A stretch of 64,000 nt of DNA, from assembly GCF_047606305.1 (NCBI RefSeq), contig NZ_JASGER010000051.1:6787-70786 (forward strand), in the 5' to 3' direction. Source of the DNA: Gordonia sp. (in: high G+C Gram-positive bacteria) (lineage in GTDB: Bacteria; Actinomycetota; Actinomycetes; Mycobacteriales; Mycobacteriaceae). The notes below the pieces were generated by a model. The model did no database searches. It was given only the letters and a program-made list of their open reading frames with translations, and was not told the origin of the DNA. Each line of letters starts with the position of its first letter. The first letter of the stretch is position 1. This document shows, piece by piece, positions 857 through 59,628 of this stretch. The position numbers and the translations under genes were made by a program.

Positions 857-3711
<2,855 letters not shown>

Positions 3712-3715
<4 letters not shown>

Positions 3716-4902
3716 CGCGAATAGACCAGCTTGTCGATGGCCACCGCGGCACCGGGCGCCGCGGTGAGCGGTCGGCGCACCGGCGCGAAACGAACCGCGG
3801 CGGTGCCGGGCGGCATCGGCATGCGACCGGCCCGATAGCCCAGCGCGGTGAGCACCGCTAGTTGCGCGGGCTGCTTGGCGAAGGCGACGAAGTGGGCCAC
3901 CGCGTCGGGCAGGGCGCTGGTGGTGCCGTCATCGCCCAGCCGGAGCACCGGGTAGTCGGCCACCGGGGTCACACCGGCCGGCGAGTAGCCGCGGATCTTG
4001 TCGGCGACCTCCGGGGTCTTGGTCAGCTGGAACAGTTGCTGCTCGGTGATCGGGACCGCGTGGATACCCTTGCGCTGGTCTCCCTTGGCCATGGCCGCGA
4101 CTGCCGCCGCGGCGGAATTCTCGGGGGCCTTGGGTGCTGCGGAGAGCACGGCGTTGACGCCGCCGGTGACCGACGTCGACGTGGCCTTCGCCGCGGTCAA
4201 CCGCCCGGGCATGCGCCCGATCTGGGCGGCGATCGCCTGGGCGGCCAGTGCGGTGGCGTCCGATCCGACACCCGTCGGCATGGCCAGGCGCAGCGAGCCC
4301 CACGCGGGCAGCCCGAACTGGCCCATCGCGTCCTCGTTCTGGGTGAGCGCGGGCATCCGGCCCCAGGCCAGCTTGCGGCCGGCCTTGGCGGCCAGCGCGG
4401 TGGGCAGGGCCAGGACGACCGGCGAGGTGACCAGCGAATCCGGGGCGCCCTCGGCGGCACCGGGCTTGGCGACGGCCAGCTCGGCGGCCCACACCGACGA
4501 CTGCGGGATCCACGCCGCCGGCCGCGGGCCGAGCTTCGCGGTGTCCCACGTGCCGCGCAGGGCGTCGAGGGTGGCGCGCGACTCCTCCGGGCGCACCTGC
4601 ACGCTCACGCACTTGTCGCGCACCACCGGGTGGGTGTCGTTGTACCGCTTGGCGATCTCGCCGAGGGCCTCGGCGATGTCCGGGCTCGCGACGATCGGCA
4701 CCTGCGCCTTGCCCTCGACGCACGAGTCGGCGGCCATGTCGGTCTGCCGACCGATGTGGTCGCGGGCCTGGAACCAGCTCACCCCGAGGCCGGCGACCAG
4801 CAATACGGCCAAGACCGCGGCGATGACCGGCCGGGGCCACCGTCGCTTCGCCGCGCCGGGGACGGCGCTGGCCGGCACGTGGCCGCGGGGCTTACGCGCC
4901 AT
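3712..4902 (-). CDS. Membrane-anchored substrate-binding-domain protein (Rv1836c-like, no vWA domain)
   Basis: N-terminal TM helix, then C...C SBP-like region ([27 protein letters not shown]); syntenic between gcvP and glcB; start set at MARKPRG. Confidence 0.7.
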
Positions 4903-7075
4903 GGGCCGCTTTGTACTCGCGGCGGCGGTGGTGCAGGATCGGCTCGGTGTAGCCACTCGGCTGCTTCGCACCCTCGAGGATCAGCTCCTTGGCGGCCTGG
5001 AAGGCGATGCTGGAGTCGAAGGCGGGGGCCATCGGCGTGTAGTCGGGGTCGTCGGCGTTCTGCCGGTCGACGACCGGCGCCATCCGCTCGAGCGCGGCCG
5101 TGATGTCGTCGGCGCTCACGATGCCGTGGCGCATCCAGTTCGCCAGCAGCTGGCTGGAGATGCGCAGCGTTGCGCGGTCCTCCATCAGGGCGACGTCGTG
5201 GATGTCGGGGACCTTGGAACAGCCGACGCCGTGGTCGATCCAGCGGACGACGTAGCCCAGGATCGACTGGCAGTTGTTGTCGAGCTCCTCGCGCTTCTCG
5301 GCATCGGACCAGTCAGTCTTCGGGGCGAGCGGGATGGTCAGGATGTCGTCGACGGAGGCGGGGGAGCGCTTGGCGAGCTCGTCCTGCACCTTGAAGACGT
5401 CCACGTCGTGATAGTGCATGGCGTGCAGCGTGGCCGCGGTCGGGGACGGCACCCACGCGGTGGTCGCGCCGGCCTTGGGCTGGCCGATCTTCTGGTTCAC
5501 CATGTCGGCCATCAGGTCGGTCATGGCCCACATGCCCTTGCCGATCTGGGCCTTGTGCTGCAGGCCGGCGGCCAGACCGACGTCGACGTTGTTGTCCTCG
5601 TAGGCCTTGATCCACGTCTGCGACTTCATCTCGCCCTTGCGGATCATCGGACCGGCCTCCATCGAGGTGTGGATCTCGTCGCCGGTGCGGTCCAGGAAGC
5701 CCGTGTTGATGAACACGACGCGCTCCTGCGCGGCCTTGATCGCGGCCTTGAGGTTCACCGTCGTGCGGCGCTCCTCGTCCATGATGCCGACCTTGAGCGT
5801 GTTGCGCGGCACGCCGATGACGTCCTCGACGGCGGCGAACAGATCGCCGGTGAAGGCGACCTCGTCGGGGCCGTGCATCTTCGGCTTCACGATGTAGATC
5901 GAGCCGGTGCGCGAGTTCTGCAGACCTTCCGTGGAGAGTCCGTGCTTGCCGATCAACGACGTGACCAGCGCATCGAGGATGCCCTCGGGCACCTCGTTGC
6001 CGTCGGCGTCCAGGACGGCGGGGTTGGTCATCAGGTGCCCGACGTTGCGGACGAACAGCAGCGAGCGTCCGTGCAGCTCCAGCTCGGAGCCGTCAGGCGC
6101 CGTGTAGGTGCGGTTCGGGTTGAGCACGCGGGTGAAGGTCTTGCCGCCCTTGGCGACCTCCTCGGCGAGATCGCCGCGGTTGAGGCCCAGCCAGTTGCGG
6201 TAACCCACGACCTTGTCGTCGGCGTCGACCGCCGCGACCGAGTCCTCGAAGTCCATGATCGTGGTGATCGCGGACTCGAGCTCGACATCGGAGACACCCG
6301 CCTTGTCGGTGGAGCCGACCGGCGACGACGGGTCGAACAGGATGTCGACGTGCAGGCCGTGGTGACGCAGCAGGATCGACGTCGGCGCCAGCGCGTCGCC
6401 GCGGTAGCCGACGAAGGCGTCCGGATCGGCGAAGGTGGTGACCTGGGAGTCGTCGCCGAGGACCACGTTCACGCGGTTGCCGTCGATCACGTACTTGGTG
6501 GCGTCGGAGTGGCTGCCCTGCTCCAGCGGCACCGCGGTGTCGAGGAACTTCTTCGCGTACGCGATGACCTTGTCGCCGCGGACCTTGTTGTACGACTTGC
6601 CCTTCTCGGCGCCGTCGGTCTCCGGGATCACGTCGGTGCCGTAGAGCGCGTCGTAGAGCGAGCCCCAGCGGGCGTTCGCGGCGTTGAGCGCGAAGCGGGC
6701 GTTGAGGATGGGCACGACCAGCTGGGGGCCGGCCGTCTCGGAGATCTCCGAGTCGACCCCGGAGGTGCCGATCTGGAAGTCCTCCGGCGGCGTCACCAGG
6801 TAGCCGATCTCGGAGAGGAACTTCTTGTAGGCGTCGAAGTCGACCTTGCCGTCGGTCGCTGGGTGGTCGCGGTGCCACTGGTCGACCTTGGCCTGCAGGT
6901 CGTCGCGGACGGCGAGCAGTTCGCGGTTGCGCGGGGCGAACGTGCTGATCACATCGGCCGCACCGGCCCAGAACGCGTCCTGGTCTACACCGGTGCCGGG
7001 CAACGCCTCATTGTTGATGAAGTCGTAGAGGACCGGGGAGACCTGAAGTCCGTGGACGGTGACGCGGTCAGACAT
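4892..7075 (-). CDS. glcB: Malate synthase G
   Basis: [61 protein letters not shown]; start MSDRVTV. Confidence 0.98.
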
Positions 7076-8043: not shown

Positions 8044-9108
8044 TTAGAGCCTGTTCGTCTCGTCCGCTACGGTGCCGAGCAGATCCTCGACGAGGTCGGC
8101 AAGTGCGGCCAGACCGATGGTGCGCCCGGAGTCGTCGACGACGGCGGCGAGGTGGGAACTGGTCCGACGCATGTCGGTCATCGCGTCGTCGAGCATCGTG
8201 GTGGCCGTGAGCACGGGCAGGGGCCTGACGTCAGCGGGGCCGATGATGGTCGCCGGACCGCGCTCGTCGTCGGCGATTGCACCGAGAACGTCTTTGAGGT
8301 GCAGATAGCCGGTGAAGATTCCGCCGGGCGCCCGCACCGGGAACCGCGAGTAGCCGGTCTCGGCGACCGCCTCCTCGACGGCGGCCAGCGTCGGACCGTC
8401 GTGGCCGGGCTCGGTGTCGATCCAGCGGACCTTGGTGAGCGGAATCATGACGTCGGCGATGGTGCGCCCGACGCTGGCGAGCGCGCGGGTGAGGCGCTGA
8501 TGCTCCTCGTCGTCGATCAGGCCCTCGTCTCGGGAGTCGCTGATCATGACGGCGAGCTCGGTCTGCGACACGGTCGAGTCGAGCTCGTCGCGGGGGGTGA
8601 CGTGCAGAACCCGCAGGGCCAGATTGGCGAGAAGGTTGTAGAACGCCAGGATCGGTCGGGTCAGCCGCACGAACAACAGATGAGCCGGTACCAGGAGCAT
8701 CGCCGAGCGTTCCGGACCGGCGAGGGCGATGTTCTTCGGCACCATTTCGCCGAGAAGGATGTGGAGCACGACCACCAGCATCAGGGACACGGTGAAGCTG
8801 ATCGGGTGCAGCAGCGAGTGCGGCACCGACGCCCAATCGAGGGGCTGCTCGAGGATGTGGGCGATGGCGGGTTCGCCGACGCGGCCGAGCAGGATCGAGC
8901 AGATGGTGATGCCCAACTGGGCGCCGGCCAACATGATCGTCAGCCGCTCGGATGCGCGGATGACGGTCCGCGCCCGCGAGTTCCCGTCGTCGGCGAGGGC
9001 CTCGAGGCGGTCGCGGCGCGCCGAGATCAGGGAGAACTCGGCGGCGACGAAGAAGGCGTTGGCGGCCAACAGGGCGATGGTGAGCACCACTCCGACCCAG
9101 GCGTTCAT
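8044..9108 (-). CDS. CNNM/CBS (hemolysin-family) membrane protein (Rv1841c-like)
   Basis: ANAFFVAAEFSLISARR, GEMVPKN, CBS pair with YSRFPV. Confidence 0.92.
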   Translation of the reverse strand: MNAWVGVVLTIALLAANAFFVAAEFSLISARRDRLEALADDGNSRARTVIRASERLTIMLAGAQLGITICSILLGRVGEPAIAHILEQPLDWASVPHSLLHPISFTVSLMLVVVLHILLGEMVPKNIALAGPERSAMLLVPAHLLFVRLTRPILAFYNLLANLALRVLHVTPRDELDSTVSQTELAVMISDSRDEGLIDDEEHQRLTRALASVGRTIADVMIPLTKVRWIDTEPGHDGPTLAAVEEAVAETGYSRFPVRAPGGIFTGYLHLKDVLGAIADDERGPATIIGPADVRPLPVLTATTMLDDAMTDMRRTSSHLAAVVDDSGRTIGLAALADLVEDLLGTVADETNRL

Positions 9109-10541
9109 GAGCGGCCTCCCGACGCGGGCGTGGTGTGGGCGTCATCCGTCGGCGGCAGCGGCTGCAGGGACACCGTGTCGATCCGGCGGCCGTCCATCGC
9201 GGTGACGCGGGCGCGCCAGCGCTGCGTGGTCGTCGGGGCGCTGCGGGAGACGGGGCGCTCGGCGGACTCGTCCTCGTCGTCGCCGGTGCGGGCGAGGGAC
9301 TCCAGGTCGACCTCGTCGCCGACGGTGGGGATGCGGCCGAGGCGGAACATCACCAGGCCGCCGAGCGTGTCGTAGGCGCCCTCGGGCGCTCGCAGGCCGG
9401 TGGCCTCGTCGAGTTCGTCCAGCCGCAGCAGCCCCGAGCAGACGAACCCGTCGCCGTCGGCGGTGACCTCGTCGTTCTCGTCGTCGTGCTCGTCGGTGAC
9501 CGAGCCGACGATCTCCTCGATGACGTCCTCGGTGGTGACGATCCCGGCGGTGCCGCCGTATTCGTCGATGACGACGCAGATCTCCAGGCCGCCGGCGGCG
9601 AGTTGATGCACCACGGCGTCGCCGTCGAGGCTTGCCGGCACGGTGGCGACCGGCCACACCAGCGTGTCCAGGCGGGTTGTGCGCAGGTGGGCGTGCGGCA
9701 CGGAGAAGGCCTGCTTGATGTGGACGATGCCGATGAGGTTGTCCAGGTCGCCCTCGTGGCAGACGGGGAAGCGGCTGTGCCCGGTGTCGGCGGCCACCCG
9801 CACGAGGTCGTCGACGGTGTCCTCGGGTCCGAGGGTGGTGACGCGGACGCGGGGGGTCATCAGATCCTCGGCGGTCAGCTCGCCGAAGCGCAGCGAGCGG
9901 TCGACGAGGACGGCGGTGTCGGCGTCGATCGAGCCGTGTCGCGCCGAGTTGCGGACCAGCGAGGCGAGCTCTTGCGGTGAGCGGGCCGAGGCGAGCTCCT
10001 CGGCCGGCTCGACACCGAGCCGGCGGACCAACCAGTTGGCGGTCCCGTTGAGGCCGTTGATCGCGGGTCGGAACAGGGCCGAGAAACCGACCATCGGCGC
10101 GGCGGTGAACCGGGCGACGGCCAGGGGGAGCGAAATGGCGAGGTTCTTCGGGATCAGCTCGCCCAGGACCATCGACAGCGAGGTCGCGAGCACCAGTGCC
10201 AAGGTCGCCGAGAGCCAACCGTGCCAACTCGCCGGCACGCCGAGAGCGGTGAGCGCCGGGTTGATGAACCGGGCGAGCACCGGTTCGGCCAGGTAACCGG
10301 TGATCAGCGTCGTGATCGTGATACCGAGCTGGGCGCCGGACAGCTGGAAGGAGAGCGTCCGGTGCGCGCGTTCCACCTGCCGTGACCGCAGGTCGCCGCG
10401 GGTGGCGACATCGTCGGTGACCGTCGAGCGCTCGAGTGCGGTGAGGGAGAACTCGGCGGCGACGAACACCGCCGTGCCGACGGTCAGGGCGATGAATCCC
10501 ACCACTGCGGCGGTCGTCGCGGCTATCGAGGCCCAGTCCAC
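9105..10541 (-). CDS. CNNM/CBS/CorC_HlyC membrane protein (Rv1842c-like)
   Basis: FVAAEFSL, AQLGIT, GELIPKN, HSRFPV, DEYGGTAGIVTTEDVIEEIVG, YDTLGGL; GTG start chosen. Confidence 0.92.
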   Translation of the reverse strand: MDWASIAATTAAVVGFIALTVGTAVFVAAEFSLTALERSTVTDDVATRGDLRSRQVERAHRTLSFQLSGAQLGITITTLITGYLAEPVLARFINPALTALGVPASWHGWLSATLALVLATSLSMVLGELIPKNLAISLPLAVARFTAAPMVGFSALFRPAINGLNGTANWLVRRLGVEPAEELASARSPQELASLVRNSARHGSIDADTAVLVDRSLRFGELTAEDLMTPRVRVTTLGPEDTVDDLVRVAADTGHSRFPVCHEGDLDNLIGIVHIKQAFSVPHAHLRTTRLDTLVWPVATVPASLDGDAVVHQLAAGGLEICVVIDEYGGTAGIVTTEDVIEEIVGSVTDEHDDENDEVTADGDGFVCSGLLRLDELDEATGLRAPEGAYDTLGGLVMFRLGRIPTVGDEVDLESLARTGDDEDESAERPVSRSAPTTTQRWRARVTAMDGRRIDTVSLQPLPPTDDAHTTPASGGRS

Positions 10542-56152: not shown

Positions 56153-56213
56153 GCGGCCATCCTAGGGAAGCCCGCACTAGTATGTGATCGCGGACACGTC
56201 CGAAAGGAACGCC

Positions 56214-56852
56214 ATGAACGTGATTGGACATCGCCGATCGATCGGCATCGTTGTCGGCCTGGGCGCCGTCGCCCTGCTCGGGGCGGGCTGTGCCAGCGAG
56301 ACGGCGACGGCTCCGACGTCGTCGCAAGCGGGCGGGTACGACGGCGGCCCGTCGAGCGCGTACTACTCGGCGGCCTCGTCGTCGGCACCCGCGTGGCCGG
56401 CTCGCCCGGTCCGCCTGAAGGCTGCCGACGGCACCCCGGTCATCCTGATCGGACCGATCGCCGCCAAGTACACCCACGCGACGCCCGCCCAGAAGAAGGA
56501 CCTCGGCCTTCCGCTGAGCGGCGATCACAACTCGGGTAAACGCGCCAACGGCCTGGTGTTCCAACAGTTCAAGGGTGGTGTCATCACCGCCCGCAACGGT
56601 CATGCGGGCACGCCGGCCTACATCACCTGGGGCAAGATCCGCGACGCCTGGAATGTCGAGCGGGCGCCGGACGGCACGCCGTCGGTCAACGGCAAGAACG
56701 GCTCGGCCGGTCCGCTCGGCATGGCGACCAGCGACGAGATCACCAAGGGTGATCTGAAGGAGTCGACGTTCGCGCACGGCACGATTACGTACAACACGGT
56801 CACCCACAAGGTCACCGTGAAGGTCAACGGCAAGGTCGTCCCGACCAAGTAG
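56214..56852 (+). CDS. Lipoprotein with LGFP-like repeats
   Basis: Lipobox LGAG-C; DLGLPLS..QQFKGGVI and GPLGMATSDE..TFAHGTI repeats; AAGGA RBS. Confidence 0.8.
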   Translation: MNVIGHRRSIGIVVGLGAVALLGAGCASETATAPTSSQAGGYDGGPSSAYYSAASSSAPAWPARPVRLKAADGTPVILIGPIAAKYTHATPAQKKDLGLPLSGDHNSGKRANGLVFQQFKGGVITARNGHAGTPAYITWGKIRDAWNVERAPDGTPSVNGKNGSAGPLGMATSDEITKGDLKESTFAHGTITYNTVTHKVTVKVNGKVVPTK

Positions 56853-56859
56853 CCCGGTC

Positions 56860-58209
56860 TCAGGCCAGCGCGGACAGCACTTCCCGCGCGGCCGCGCGAC
56901 CGGAACGCACGGCGCCCTCCATGTAGCCGTTCCATTCGACGGCGTACTCGGCACCGGCCCAGTGGATGGCGGCGATGGGTTCGCGCAGCGCCGGTCCGAA
57001 GCCGGTCCAGACTCCGGGGGCGAAGTGTGCGCCGTAGCAACCGCGGGTGAACTCTTCGGTGCTCCAGTCCTTCTCGACGTAGGACATCGGTGAGGTCGCA
57101 CGATCGCCGAAGTACCGGGTGAAACAACCGATGACGTCGTCCCGGCGCTGTACGTCGTCCTGACGTTGCCACCGCAGCGCATCGGCACCCTCGACGAAGC
57201 CGAGGAGGACGCCGATCGAACCGTCCGGTGGCGACACGTCGAAGGTCACCTTGACCGGGCCGCGATCGGAGACGGCCTGTCCGTTCAGGCCGTCGTCGCG
57301 CCAGAACGGCGTCGAATAGGACGCGAAGCACTTGGCCACGGATCCGGCGGGCAGGCGCTGGGTCAGCTGGTCGCGCCACGGTGGCAGGGCCGGTTCGTAT
57401 TCGATTCGACCAGCCAAGGTCGGGGGGATGGCGACGATGACGCGACGTGCTGTGAAGGTGTTCCCGTCACGAAGTGTCACAGTGACGGAATCCGTGGTCC
57501 GGCTGATCGTGCGCACGGGGGAGCGGAACCGTATGTCGAGGTCCGCGGCGAGTCGTTCGGCAACCAAGACGGACCCGCCGACGACGCGGTCCTGCTGCGC
57601 GCCGCGATCGACGGAGACCAGGGTCTCCAGGTCGGCATTGGCCGCGGTGTAGAACAGCGCATGCAACAAGGAGAAGTCGGAGGCGTCGGCGGCATAGACG
57701 GCCTCCGCGGTGATGCGGAAGTAGGCGCGACCGGCCTCGGTGCGCAGATTCCGTCGGATCCACGTCTCGTAGGTCTGCCCATCGAGGCGTGCCGCGTGTC
57801 GGTGCTCCCACGGCCGTGCCGGATCGACGCCGTCGGAGAGCCGTTTGAACCGCGTCAATCCCTGGAACAGGTCGGCCAGAGCGAACGGATTCAACTTCGG
57901 AATCGCGCCCTTCTTGCCGGACATGCGCGAGCGCCGGCCGCCCAGCTCGACGAGGAGTTGGCCCGCATCGTTCCACGTGCGGAAGCTCTCCAGACCCAGC
58001 CGGACGACGAGATCGTGCATCTCGGTGTGGCCCTCGCCGATCCATGTTCCGCCCAGCTCGATCGGCTGACCGTCGATCACGCCGCCCTCGAGCCGACCGC
58101 CGACACGGTCGCGCGCCTCGAGCACGACGACCGAGGAACCGGCCTCGGTCAGCGCATGCGCGGCGCTCAAGCCGGCCAACCCGGCACCGATGACGAGAAC
58201 ATCCGCCAT
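56860..58209 (-). CDS. Flavin monoamine oxidase family protein
   Basis: GAGLAGL, EARDRVGGR, ELGGTWIG, WAGAE, GYMEGAVRSG. Confidence 0.93.
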   Translation of the reverse strand: MADVLVIGAGLAGLSAAHALTEAGSSVVVLEARDRVGGRLEGGVIDGQPIELGGTWIGEGHTEMHDLVVRLGLESFRTWNDAGQLLVELGGRRSRMSGKKGAIPKLNPFALADLFQGLTRFKRLSDGVDPARPWEHRHAARLDGQTYETWIRRNLRTEAGRAYFRITAEAVYAADASDFSLLHALFYTAANADLETLVSVDRGAQQDRVVGGSVLVAERLAADLDIRFRSPVRTISRTTDSVTVTLRDGNTFTARRVIVAIPPTLAGRIEYEPALPPWRDQLTQRLPAGSVAKCFASYSTPFWRDDGLNGQAVSDRGPVKVTFDVSPPDGSIGVLLGFVEGADALRWQRQDDVQRRDDVIGCFTRYFGDRATSPMSYVEKDWSTEEFTRGCYGAHFAPGVWTGFGPALREPIAAIHWAGAEYAVEWNGYMEGAVRSGRAAAREVLSALA

Positions 58210-58487
58210 GTCGCCCACACTCCGATCTGATTCCGTTGAACCGAGCGTAGGTGTCTCGATGTGGAGGTGCATCTAATCGGTCTGATAGCCGACTATCGTC
58301 ACAGTGACGTTTCCGGGTGGGGTGGCTGGAACCGGGGAAGTCACCGAATCCATTGTCCTGCAGTAACTTTCGATGCCGTCCGCGATATTCCGAGTCGTTC
58401 GAGGCGCGTAATCATTGATCGGTCGGGAGTGCGTGCACCGATTGCCGGACGTGCGTTGCGACGGCGCGCACGAAAAGGCGGTGAGCC

Positions 58488-58543
58488 GGCTGAGTGTCGG
58501 TCAACGGCGACATGTGGGCTGAGTGTCGGTCAACGGCGACATG
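58488..58543 (+). repeat. Tandem 27-bp direct repeat (period 29)
   Basis: GGCTGAGTGTCGGTCAACGGCGACATG at 58488-58514 and 58517-58543, identical. Confidence 0.92.
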
Positions 58544-58578
58544 CGGCGACAAACCCTGTTCGTGCAGCACGGTCATAT

Positions 58579-58606
58579 TGTGCCGATAAGATACATTATG
58601 TCAACT
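58579..58606 (+). other. dif-like XerC/XerD recombination site
   Basis: TGTGCCGATAA-GATACA-TTATGTCAACT, 11-6-11 layout; matches E. coli dif GGTGCGCATAA-N6-TTATGTTAAAT and the recalled actinobacterial GCCGATAA...TTATGTCAA core. Confidence 0.86.
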
Positions 58607-58628
58607 AGGCCGGCGGACTATCGCCCCA

Positions 58629-58961
58629 TCACCGCGCAAGACCGAGGAAGGCCATCAACGCCCGTTCCAGTTCGACGGTCTGCTCGCTGGTGAGGCGCCC
58701 GACCCGCTCGTCCACATTCGAACGCCGCACCGCGGTCAGCTTGTCGATCATGATGTCGCTGTCCCGCTCGAGGCCGGAGATGAGCTCGCCGCCCCCGGCT
58801 ATCCGGATGCGGATCAGCGGCGCGTCGACCAGGGTGGTCGTGAGCGGCGCGACGATCACCGACCCGGTGGCGCTGAACGCGTCATCCTGGACGATGACTG
58901 CCGGCCGCGGCTTGGTCGCATACACCCCACCGGCCACCGTCCAGATCTCGCCCCGATTCAC
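58629..58961 (-). CDS. mazF: PemK/MazF-family toxin (endoribonuclease)
   Basis: RGEIW, KPRPAVIVQ, VIVAPLT, SDIMIDKL..VRR; GTGA overlap with antitoxin. Confidence 0.92.
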   Translation of the reverse strand: MNRGEIWTVAGGVYATKPRPAVIVQDDAFSATGSVIVAPLTTTLVDAPLIRIRIAGGGELISGLERDSDIMIDKLTAVRRSNVDERVGRLTSEQTVELERALMAFLGLAR

Positions 58962-59167
58962 TCCCCGTCGTCCCAGTGCGCGGCGATCGACTCCACGAAG
59001 TCCTGCTCGTCGCGTTCAGTCTCTGAGCCCGCGACAATCGCGGACTGTCGGCGTGCCTGTGCGGCAAAGGCTTCGGTTCGCACATCGGGCACCCACATCT
59101 GCAGCGGACGCAAACCGCGCTCGCGCATCCGCCGCCGGTACTCCCCGACCCGATCCTTGACTGCCAT
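58958..59167 (-). CDS. MazE-like antitoxin (DUF3018-type)
   Basis: RVGEYRRRMRERGLRPLQMWVPDVR, acidic tail; directly upstream of toxin. Confidence 0.87.
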   Translation of the reverse strand: MAVKDRVGEYRRRMRERGLRPLQMWVPDVRTEAFAAQARRQSAIVAGSETERDEQDFVESIAAHWDDGE

Positions 59168-59176
59168 GTCACCGAT

Positions 59177-59205
59177 GTTACATGTAACGATGGGTTACAT
59201 GTAAC
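59177..59205. promoter_or_regulatory. Paired TA operator palindromes
   Basis: GTTACATGTAAC at 59177-59188 and 59194-59205; first overlaps minus-strand TAACAT-N7-ATG. Confidence 0.82.
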
Positions 59206-59322
59206 GCCCCGTGTGTTCGAACTGAATTCGGCGGACGCGATTCTTACCCCGACAAATCGGATCAAACGTGGTTACGGTGGAGTCAACCCCCGACCGTCGG
59301 GGTACGACAGAGGGAGATCATC

Positions 59323-59628
59323 ATGACTGCCATTGAAGCGACCACCGAGATTCTCGCCCGCTCGACCACGACCACCACCGTCGGCTGGTTCGGTTACATC
59401 GTCATCGGCGCGCTCGCGGGCTGGCTCGCCGGCAAGCTCGTCAAGGGTGGCGGGCAGGGCATCCTGCTGAACATCATCATCGGTATCGTCGGCGCCCTGC
59501 TGGGCGGCTGGATCCTCAGCTGGTTCGTCGACACCGCCTCGGGCGGCTGGTGGTTCACCTTCTTCACCGCGCTGGCCGGTTCGGTGATCCTGTTGTGGCT
59601 GCTGAGCCTGGTGACCAGTAAGCGCTGA
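59323..59628 (+). CDS. GlsB/YeaQ/YmgE-family stress membrane protein
   Basis: IGALAGWLAGKL, NIIIGIVGALLGG, ALAGSVILL. Confidence 0.9.
   Translation: MTAIEATTEILARSTTTTTVGWFGYIVIGALAGWLAGKLVKGGGQGILLNIIIGIVGALLGGWILSWFVDTASGGWWFTFFTALAGSVILLWLLSLVTSKR

Follow-up and report, generated by a model that had tools for sequence, protein, structure and literature searches.

The window analyzed here, 64,000 nucleotides (nt) at positions 6787 to 70786 of contig C51 of a Gordonia genome (G000; assembly of 3.2 Mb in 127 contigs, 70% G+C), contains the chromosomal dif site and, beside the XerD arm of that site, a mazEF-type toxin-antitoxin (TA) pair. We assign a probability of roughly 70% to the following interpretation of this pair, which draws on comparison of its sequence context with that of related genomes. 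The MazEF pair would be a member of a family of 0.63- to 0.8-kb TA cassettes that are inserted by a recombinase, in arrays of one to six, from the outer edge of the XerD arm of dif, and the copy in G000 would be a relic.

The association between mazF and dif was examined in a genus comparison set of 92 Gordonia genomes. Orthologues of the mazF gene were found in 22 of these and were full length in 18, including G000; the 17 full-length copies from other Gordonia are 75 to 79% identical to that of the window. Both dif and mazF could be located in 19 genomes (including G000), and in every one mazF is found on the XerD side, its 3' end pointing to dif. For locus comparison, 20 Gordonia loci carrying a mazF orthologue were retrieved, and wherever dif lay on the retrieved stretch the order on the XerD-arm side was dif, mazF(-), mazE(-). 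The mazF stop codon is 22 nt from dif in G000, 78 to 101 nt from it in G083, G066, G065, G085, G023, and G056, and between 0.8 and 9.4 kb from it in the others. Beyond dif-mazFE the genes vary among genomes, and the right flank of the window is common to G009 and G011 only. The initial annotation had proposed that dif carries linked cargo, and this is borne out by the variable material between dif and mazF and by a TA pair that is not fixed in the genus.

The sequence between dif and the cassettes contains a recurring repeat. In relatives in which mazF comes first, the spacer after dif opens with GTAAAccACTGCATATTGCA and a hairpin. We refer to the conserved block AGTAAAccACTGCATATTGCA together with its small hairpin as the R-half, which directly follows dif and forms the start of a cassette, and to GAATATGCAGcaatCGAATATGCAGGGTTACC as the L-half, which forms the end of a cassette. 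L-half and R-half together make up a unit of about 70 nt that stands between cassettes, while the head of an array consists of dif and an R-half. In genomes with inserts, the R-half is present twice, once after dif and once about 50 nt before the mazF stop codon, and the latter copy is preceded by GAATATGCAGcaatCGAATATGCAGGGTTACC. A unit composed of both halves is also found 50 to 80 nt upstream of mazE in most relatives. Since units are present on both sides, the mazFE cassette is flanked by direct repeats of about 70 nt or, proximally, by dif plus R-half. The R-half also follows dif in many Gordonia genomes that have no arrays.

Arrays contain five units in G058, five or six in G093 and G006, and three in G067, G060, and G070, at a spacing of 0.7 to 1.5 kb. 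The 30 nonredundant loci that contain one dif site and one or more units hold 55 units in all, every one of them on the XerD side and in the orientation of dif. Most of the 64 inter-unit segments are 630 to 810 bp long and hold two minus-strand genes, one for an antitoxin of 68 to 105 amino acids (aa) and one for a toxin of 110 to 143 aa. Clustering and Pfam matches distinguished five recurrent types of cassette: PemK/MazF with a MazE-like antitoxin, PIN with Phd/YefM, PIN with a FitA-like ribbon-helix-helix protein, PIN with VapB, and a nucleotidyltransferase (MNT) with a HEPN-like protein. Within the recurrent families, 83 of 87 open reading frames are on the strand that reads toward dif, a direction that is co-directional with replication on the XerD side. 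The TA cassettes have their own operator and promoter region and encode no recombinase. Extra or partial copies of the pair were observed in three genomes: mazE is duplicated in G058, G070 has a truncated mazF along with mazE, and in G093 there is a second mazF (L028:6169-6653 and 9090-9203; L023:9057-9358; L031:13664-13939). Such copies are evidence of tandem duplication and decay inside arrays.

The boundaries of the cassettes could be placed to the nucleotide. G071 and G067 have in common 1.55 kb at 97% identity, comprising a VapBC cassette and the cassette that follows it. In G071 the VapBC cassette is the leading one after dif, but in G067 it is preceded by a Tn7-like element, mazFE, and a unit. 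The two loci become homologous exactly at AGTAA, to the left of which the sequence is ...TTATGTCA in G071 (dif) and ...GGGTTACC in G067 (L-half). The break, ..TGTCA/AGTAA.. versus ..GTTACC/AGTAA.., falls in the outer XerD arm, outside the central region, and the AGTAA junction recurs for mazFE cassettes at first and later positions. The initial annotation had anticipated variable cargo starting exactly at the XerD arm; the break is indeed precise and recurrent, but it lies inside the outer part of the arm.

The unit was also found outside Gordonia. In a species-representative genome collection that was scanned for the exact pattern, it occurred in Mycobacterium/Mycolicibacterium (M. palauense, M. 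vanbaalenii, M. litorale, M. rhodesiae, and M. vaccae), in Dietzia, in Rhodococcus, and in further Gordonia, and dif was the array head wherever it lay inside the 8-kb locus. Seven complete chromosomes of other genera have a unit on the XerD side and on the strand of dif, at a distance of 0.8 to 6.8 kb. We also sampled 401 genomes of the family evenly (34 genera) and searched them for the 20-nt unit core at up to two mismatches, with the reversed pattern as a control. The core was present in 60 genomes and 15 genera, and the control gave no match. It is about 90% conserved across genera, and units occupy essentially one locus per record in five named non-Gordonia records. The exact junction at the XerD arm is found again in Gordonia, Mycobacterium, and Dietzia.

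These observations bear on whether the arrays could have accumulated passively in a plastic, low-dosage terminus, with the unit being a repeat similar to repetitive extragenic palindromes or miniature inverted-repeat transposable elements, or a terminator or promoter module, unrelated to recombination. Tn7-like elements, IS21, and IS630/IS256 are also present in these regions, the R-half hairpin could serve as a terminator, and an Rfam scan of three array loci matched the unit to no family, and nothing known explains it. Set against these points are the single side and single orientation of all 55 units, the near restriction of a highly conserved core to one locus per record, the exact XerD-arm junction that recurs across three genera, and the presence of 7.5-kb recombinase-bearing elements inside the same boundaries (see below). 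Passive accumulation is therefore highly improbable.

A plasmid extends the association beyond the chromosome. On p174, a 174-kb plasmid from G. polyisoprenivorans VH2, a perfect dif core is followed in order by an R-half, a Tn7-like element with cargo for arsenic resistance, a degenerate L-half, mazFE, and a unit; this mazFE is 85% identical at the nucleotide level to the G058 cassette. A search of plasmids for dif-associated mazEF, as the initial annotation had advised, was thus productive, and homologues elsewhere do occur beside dif. Neither dif nor the unit was found near the mazEF homologues (69% nucleotide identity) of Rhodococcus linear plasmids. Unit-like matches on plasmids of Mycolicibacterium rufum and Rhodococcus sp. 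BH4 were uninformative. A full-text literature search that included the unit sequence retrieved no description of a dif-anchored arrangement; its coverage was incomplete and does not prove novelty, and the dif-anchored TA cassette arrays of Gordonia, Mycobacterium, and relatives are apparently undescribed.

From the breakpoints and the repeat, we infer a possible route of insertion. Read as 11-6-11, the unit is ATGCAGGGTTA-CCAGTA-AACCACTGCAT, with arms that are inverted repeats at 8 of 11 positions. This segment may be the core on which a recombinase acts, and its chromosomal equivalent may be ATACATTATGT-CAAGTA-AACCACTGCAT. The unit core would then recombine with a chromosomal site that overlaps the XerD arm at its final bases. 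Because of that overlap, each insertion would regenerate dif and push older cassettes outward. Arrays would grow as integrons do, with the newest cassette next to dif.

The initial annotation had proposed, as one of two options, delivery of the TA cassette by XerCD, that is, mobility of the type described for integrative mobile elements exploiting Xer recombination (IMEX) and for pdif modules, in which TA cassettes lacking a recombinase are moved at dif by host XerC/XerD. Several observations suit this proposal. The arrays are anchored exactly at dif, the cassettes contain no recombinase gene, and dif plus a cassette occurs on a plasmid as well. Arrays and the candidate recombinase gene intA, described below, seldom co-occur, and the only PF00589 genes of G058, with its five-unit array, are two of Xer type. 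In addition, an element-encoded XerC-like protein of Acinetobacter works with host XerD (PMC11014353). The sites themselves do not fit. Compared by eye in several registers, the unit matches the dif arms at 3 to 6 of 11 positions at most, and the boundaries are direct rather than inverted repeats and are neither dif nor pdif sites. The break in homology is at the outer end of the XerD arm and not in the central region, where Xer strand exchange takes place, and the distal junction is without the host XerD arm expected from an Xer crossover. A search for a second dif-like site gave none beyond chance, either in the window, as the initial annotation had noted, or in the 20 related loci, where 23 half-site matches were obtained (2.4 expected by shuffling), 19 of them the true dif or dif variants; an IMEX architecture of the classical kind was rejected on this ground. 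Host Xer delivery is, on this evidence, unlikely.

A different candidate catalyst is encoded at dif itself. The candidate is a trio: IntA, of 381 aa, which matches PF00589; an HTH_26 protein of 111 aa; and IntB, of about 500 aa, which has zinc ribbons in its N-terminal part. The trio begins 200 to 480 nt from dif and reads away from it. On the XerD side, intA is present, at 200 to 300 nt from dif, in at least 12 Gordonia genomes (G003, G002, G100, G086, G107, G059, G057, G096, G015, and G022, and in broken form in G053 and G093). At least seven genomes have an IntA subfamily of 43 to 45% identity at the mirror position, on the XerC side of dif, and G100 and G107 hold both subfamilies. The best NCBIfam matches of IntA are XerA, XerD, XerC, and integron integrases, all under the cutoffs. 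In G003 and G002, the 7.5-kb IntA-HTH-IntB elements are bounded by the dif/R-half and L-half/R-half junctions, the same as those of the TA cassettes. Since the trio uses the cassette boundaries in some genomes, delivery by host XerCD would be unnecessary. The likeliest catalyst would be this Xer-like tyrosine recombinase set, with host XerCD as a weaker alternative. A dedicated recombinase beside the arrays was sought with PF00589 and PF00239 in five complete genomes and was rejected, since none lies near dif in G058, G083, G052, or G066. As a broader and tentative proposal, which falls somewhat short of even odds, Mycobacteriales may own a dif-anchored, integron-like system in which IntA-HTH-IntB, possibly with XerD bound next to it, captures small circular TA cassettes at a site that overlaps the XerD arm and so builds arrays at the terminus and on plasmids.

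Several findings weigh against insertion of the cassettes by a recombinase or against the placement of the G000 pair among them. The evidence for mobility is comparative throughout, and no recombination event was observed. Units are present in 28 Gordonia genomes and intA in 30, and the two coincide in 5, compared with about 9 expected by chance. The five-unit array of G058 is accompanied by only two tyrosine recombinase genes in the genome, both more than 100 kb away. The examined members (G100 and G086) of an IntA group of 59 to 65% identity have no recognizable distal unit. These three findings count against IntA as the only driver. The duplicated or partial mazFE copies of G070, G058, and G093 mean that unequal crossing-over between units could explain some arrays. 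A few unit-like matches, in G014, in G069, and at one site in G162, are far from dif. In G000, the relic of the distal unit is statistically undetectable. Lastly, GC skew on the 96-kb contig is +0.029 to the left and +0.008 to the right of dif, a local maximum only, which weakly supports a terminus at this position.

The pair in the window has the features of a type II MazEF module. The toxin matches PF02452 (PemK_toxin) with an E value of 1.1e-20 and 74.3 bits (cutoff, 23.1), and its closest solved structure is that of Mycobacterium tuberculosis MazF9, a weak yet full-length match (E value, 2e-5). The stop codon of mazF reads TCA on the plus strand, at positions 58629 to 58631, at the 22-nt distance from the XerD arm that the initial annotation had given. 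The antitoxin matches PF11455 (MazE-like) with an E value of 7.4e-24 and 84 bits (cutoff, 22), and its orthologues at the equivalent position in relatives are 70 to 78% identical. A repeat finder located two copies of a palindrome, GTTACATGTAAC, directly upstream of mazE; one copy (ATGTTACATGTAACGC) is kept at this place in all orthologous cassettes, and G000 has two. These palindromes are likely the operator of MazE or MazEF. The pair is an intact operon that is transcribed toward dif, probably functional and presumably autoregulated. A terminator scan of the window locus found none.

The recombination sequences of the G000 cassette appear to have been lost. The 22-nt spacer between the XerD arm and mazF can be interpreted as a shortened remnant of the R-half, although its resemblance to the CTAG-type R-half of G066 and G065 is weak. 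On the distal side, a possible decayed relic of the L-half (gaattcggcggacgcgattcttaccccgacaaatc) is suggested by its position and by partial likeness to a GAATACGGCGG...GTTACCAGTAAA variant of the unit. An nhmmer profile of the unit had no match in the whole G000 genome at an E value of up to 10, and intA is not present in that genome. With the unit absent, G000 would have no active site, and with its recombination sites lost, its cassette would be a fossil: a stranded relic, immobilized, with a proximal R-half that has been reduced to 22 nt and a distal unit that has decayed. Its present role would be limited to that of an ordinary addictive TA pair next to dif.

An alternative raised by the initial annotation is that the TA pair protects dif without being mobile, by penalizing deletion of dif through postsegregational killing or by stabilizing the replicon that carries it, the repeats being incidental. 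The adjacency of dif and mazFE outlasts rearrangement of both flanks, for example around the secreted-protein gene at positions 56184 to 56852, and the combination of dif and mazFE on p174 follows the logic typical of a stability region. A parallel exists in Escherichia coli K-12, in which the type II TA operon hipBA reads toward dif with the hipA stop codon 76 nt away (NC_000913.3); hipBA differs in lying on the XerC-arm side, in having no known repeat-bounded cassette, and in encoding a kinase toxin. Protection of dif is quite improbable as the whole explanation, since the pair is present in less than a quarter of the Gordonia genomes, unrelated TA families occupy the equivalent position within precise common boundaries, and many genomes have no TA pair at dif, including G090, whose dif is identical to that of the window. 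Stabilization also leaves the conserved unit and its strict orientation unexplained. A protective role can nevertheless be held alongside the insertion of cassettes by a recombinase.

The dif site of the window is well defined. At up to three mismatches it is single in the window, and shuffled sequence gave none; it is also single in the whole assembly, even at up to eight mismatches. The identical core, GCCGATAAGATACATTATGTCAA, occurs exactly once in each of 61 of the 92 Gordonia genomes, and in most complete Gordonia chromosomes dif lies at 48 to 53% of the length, assuming that the assembly start is dnaA. The XerC/XerD-type genes of G000 are on contigs C9 and C105 (two strong PF00589 matches, 156 bits each), and their naming as XerC and XerD is by score alone. 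In agreement with the initial annotation, no integrase or transposase gene was found near the window locus; none of the four PF00589 matches of the genome is on this contig. In G061, the sole dif-like site near mazFE is GCCGATAA-TAGCGA-TTATGTCAA (L038, reverse strand, at about 8100 of the oriented locus), with perfect arms and a different central region, and canonical dif was not found in that genome at up to three mismatches. Dif-like sites with two mismatches to the core were also observed on secondary replicons of two other genera (G162:C3:93917-93938 and G420:C2:108810-108831), which suggests that plasmid-borne dif sites of the chromosomal type are common in this family.

Other features surround the site (Table 1). 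On the XerC side, the palindrome was found, at up to one mismatch, in 34 of 48 dif loci from Gordonia, Mycobacterium, Dietzia, and p174, at a distance from dif of 233 to 325 nt and now and then of about 400 nt. This XerC-side palindrome, CGTCACnGTGACG, has AT-rich flanks and is present in two or three copies in some loci, and the sequence between it and dif is variable. It is part of an extended conserved dif context and could be an accessory or regulatory site. The tandem repeat pointed out in the initial annotation is real (Tandem Repeats Finder period 29, 1.9 copies, 100% match, positions 58488 to 58543) but lies outside the TA module, on the XerC-arm side of dif, and it has no homologue in the related loci. 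The segment had likewise been described as AT-richer than its flanks. This is true of two noncoding stretches, at about 59% G+C, but not of the TA genes, which at 67 to 68% equal the flanks. The secreted-protein gene is found on the XerD side and in the opposite orientation in about nine other Gordonia. This switch of sides implies inversions or translocations around dif that spare dif-mazFE.

Table 1. Features of the window and of the related loci named in the text
Feature	Position	Strand	Remarks
Chromosomal dif	58579-58606	+	XerC arm TGTGCCGATAA, central region GATACA, XerD arm TTATGTCAACT
22-nt spacer	58607-58628	.	Between XerD arm and mazF stop codon
mazF, PemK/MazF-family toxin, 110 aa	58629-58961	-	3' end toward dif
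mazE-like antitoxin, 69 aa	58958-59167	-	Upstream of mazF; 4-nt overlap with toxin start
Palindrome GTTACATGTAAC, two copies 17 nt apart	59177-59205	.	Directly upstream of mazE
Possible decayed relic of unit L-half	59215-59260	.	Position and partial likeness to unit variant
Palindrome CGTCACAGTGACG	58297-58309	.	286 nt from dif, XerC-arm side
29-nt tandem repeat, two copies	58488-58545	.	Noncoding, between amine oxidase gene and dif
Amine oxidase gene	56860-58272	-	Flank on one side
Transgly_assoc protein gene	59323-59628	+	Flank on other side
Secreted-protein gene, 222 aa	56184-56852	+	XerC side of dif here and in G056
IntA-HTH-IntB trio, examples	L099:2311-5295 (G003); L096:771-1796, 2272-5241 (G100)
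Tn7-like elements	L027:1546-10851 (G. prachuapensis); L029 (G094); L104 (p174)		Cargo includes ars genes, IS21, methyltransferase

Tn7-like transposons are a further occupant of dif. They encode a TnsA-like protein, a Mu-type transposase (TnsB), a TniB-like ATPase, and a putative TniQ. In G067, G094, and p174 these elements sit 40 to 60 nt beyond the XerD arm, and it is always the tnsA-proximal end, TGTCGGATGACA..., that faces dif. Remnants of this end are found after many R-halves. Their placement suggests that dif/R-half may be an attachment site for a Tn7-like family in Actinobacteria. Carriage of mazFE as cargo of these elements was considered and rejected. The distal end of the transposon lies between the transposon and the mazF stop codon, which places mazFE outside the element in G067, G094, and p174.

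The arrays resemble several known systems and are distinct from each. Like integrons, such as the Vibrio superintegron with its TA cassettes, they are one-directional arrays of small cassettes with a recurring site-like repeat, a fixed anchor, and TA cargo. Unlike integrons, they have no intI/attI/Pc platform and are anchored by dif: no tyrosine recombinase gene lies within 100 kb of the G058 array, and intA, where present, is inside a cassette-like element. Moreover, attC is conserved mainly in structure, whereas the repeat of the dif arrays is conserved in sequence, and integron cassettes are promoterless, whereas those of the dif arrays carry their own operator and promoter. To our knowledge, integrons have not been reported from Actinobacteria. 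IMEX (CTXphi, TLCphi, VGJphi, and the gonococcal genetic island) likewise integrate at dif, regenerate dif on one side, and stack in tandem. Their sites, however, are dif-like, with XerC and XerD arms and a central crossover, whereas the unit is unrelated to dif and the break lies at the outer XerD arm; the candidate catalyst also differs, being in the dif arrays a dedicated Xer-like recombinase. The pdif modules of Acinetobacter are small, often encode TA pairs, are bounded by short sites, and reside on plasmids; dif plus mazFE is likewise carried by p174. The pdif modules are flanked by inverted, genuine XerC/XerD sites, whereas the dif arrays have direct, non-Xer repeats and are mainly chromosomal, at the true dif.

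Mobile elements that encode an Xer-family recombinase or target dif provide another point of comparison. The XerC-like recombinase associated with Tn6022 in Acinetobacter acts at a dif-like site together with host XerD (PMC11014353), and the IS1202 family is cited in that paper as targeting dif/pdif. The Acinetobacter site has a perfect XerD half-site and depends on host XerD, whereas the unit has no XerD arm, and IS1202 elements are transposons, not cassettes.

For G000 itself the outcome is modest: the MazEF pair there is ordinary, probably functional, and apparently a stranded relic. More generally, TA cassettes, recombinase-trio elements, and Tn7-like transposons make dif a three-way hotspot in these bacteria, which bears on how variation at the terminus is read. 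If the cassettes are mobile, they would represent site-specific cassette capture in a phylum without known integrons, at a site that every circular chromosome must keep, and would provide a mechanism by which VapBC and MazEF could pass between chromosome and plasmid and spread across Gordonia, Mycobacterium, Rhodococcus, and Dietzia. The compact attachment site (about 28 to 70 nt) and the candidate recombinase could be a potential integration tool for mycobacterial genetics. Such a system, if true, would be a dedicated route for the acquisition and exchange of TA pairs and possibly the source of the very large sets of TA pairs that mycobacteria carry.

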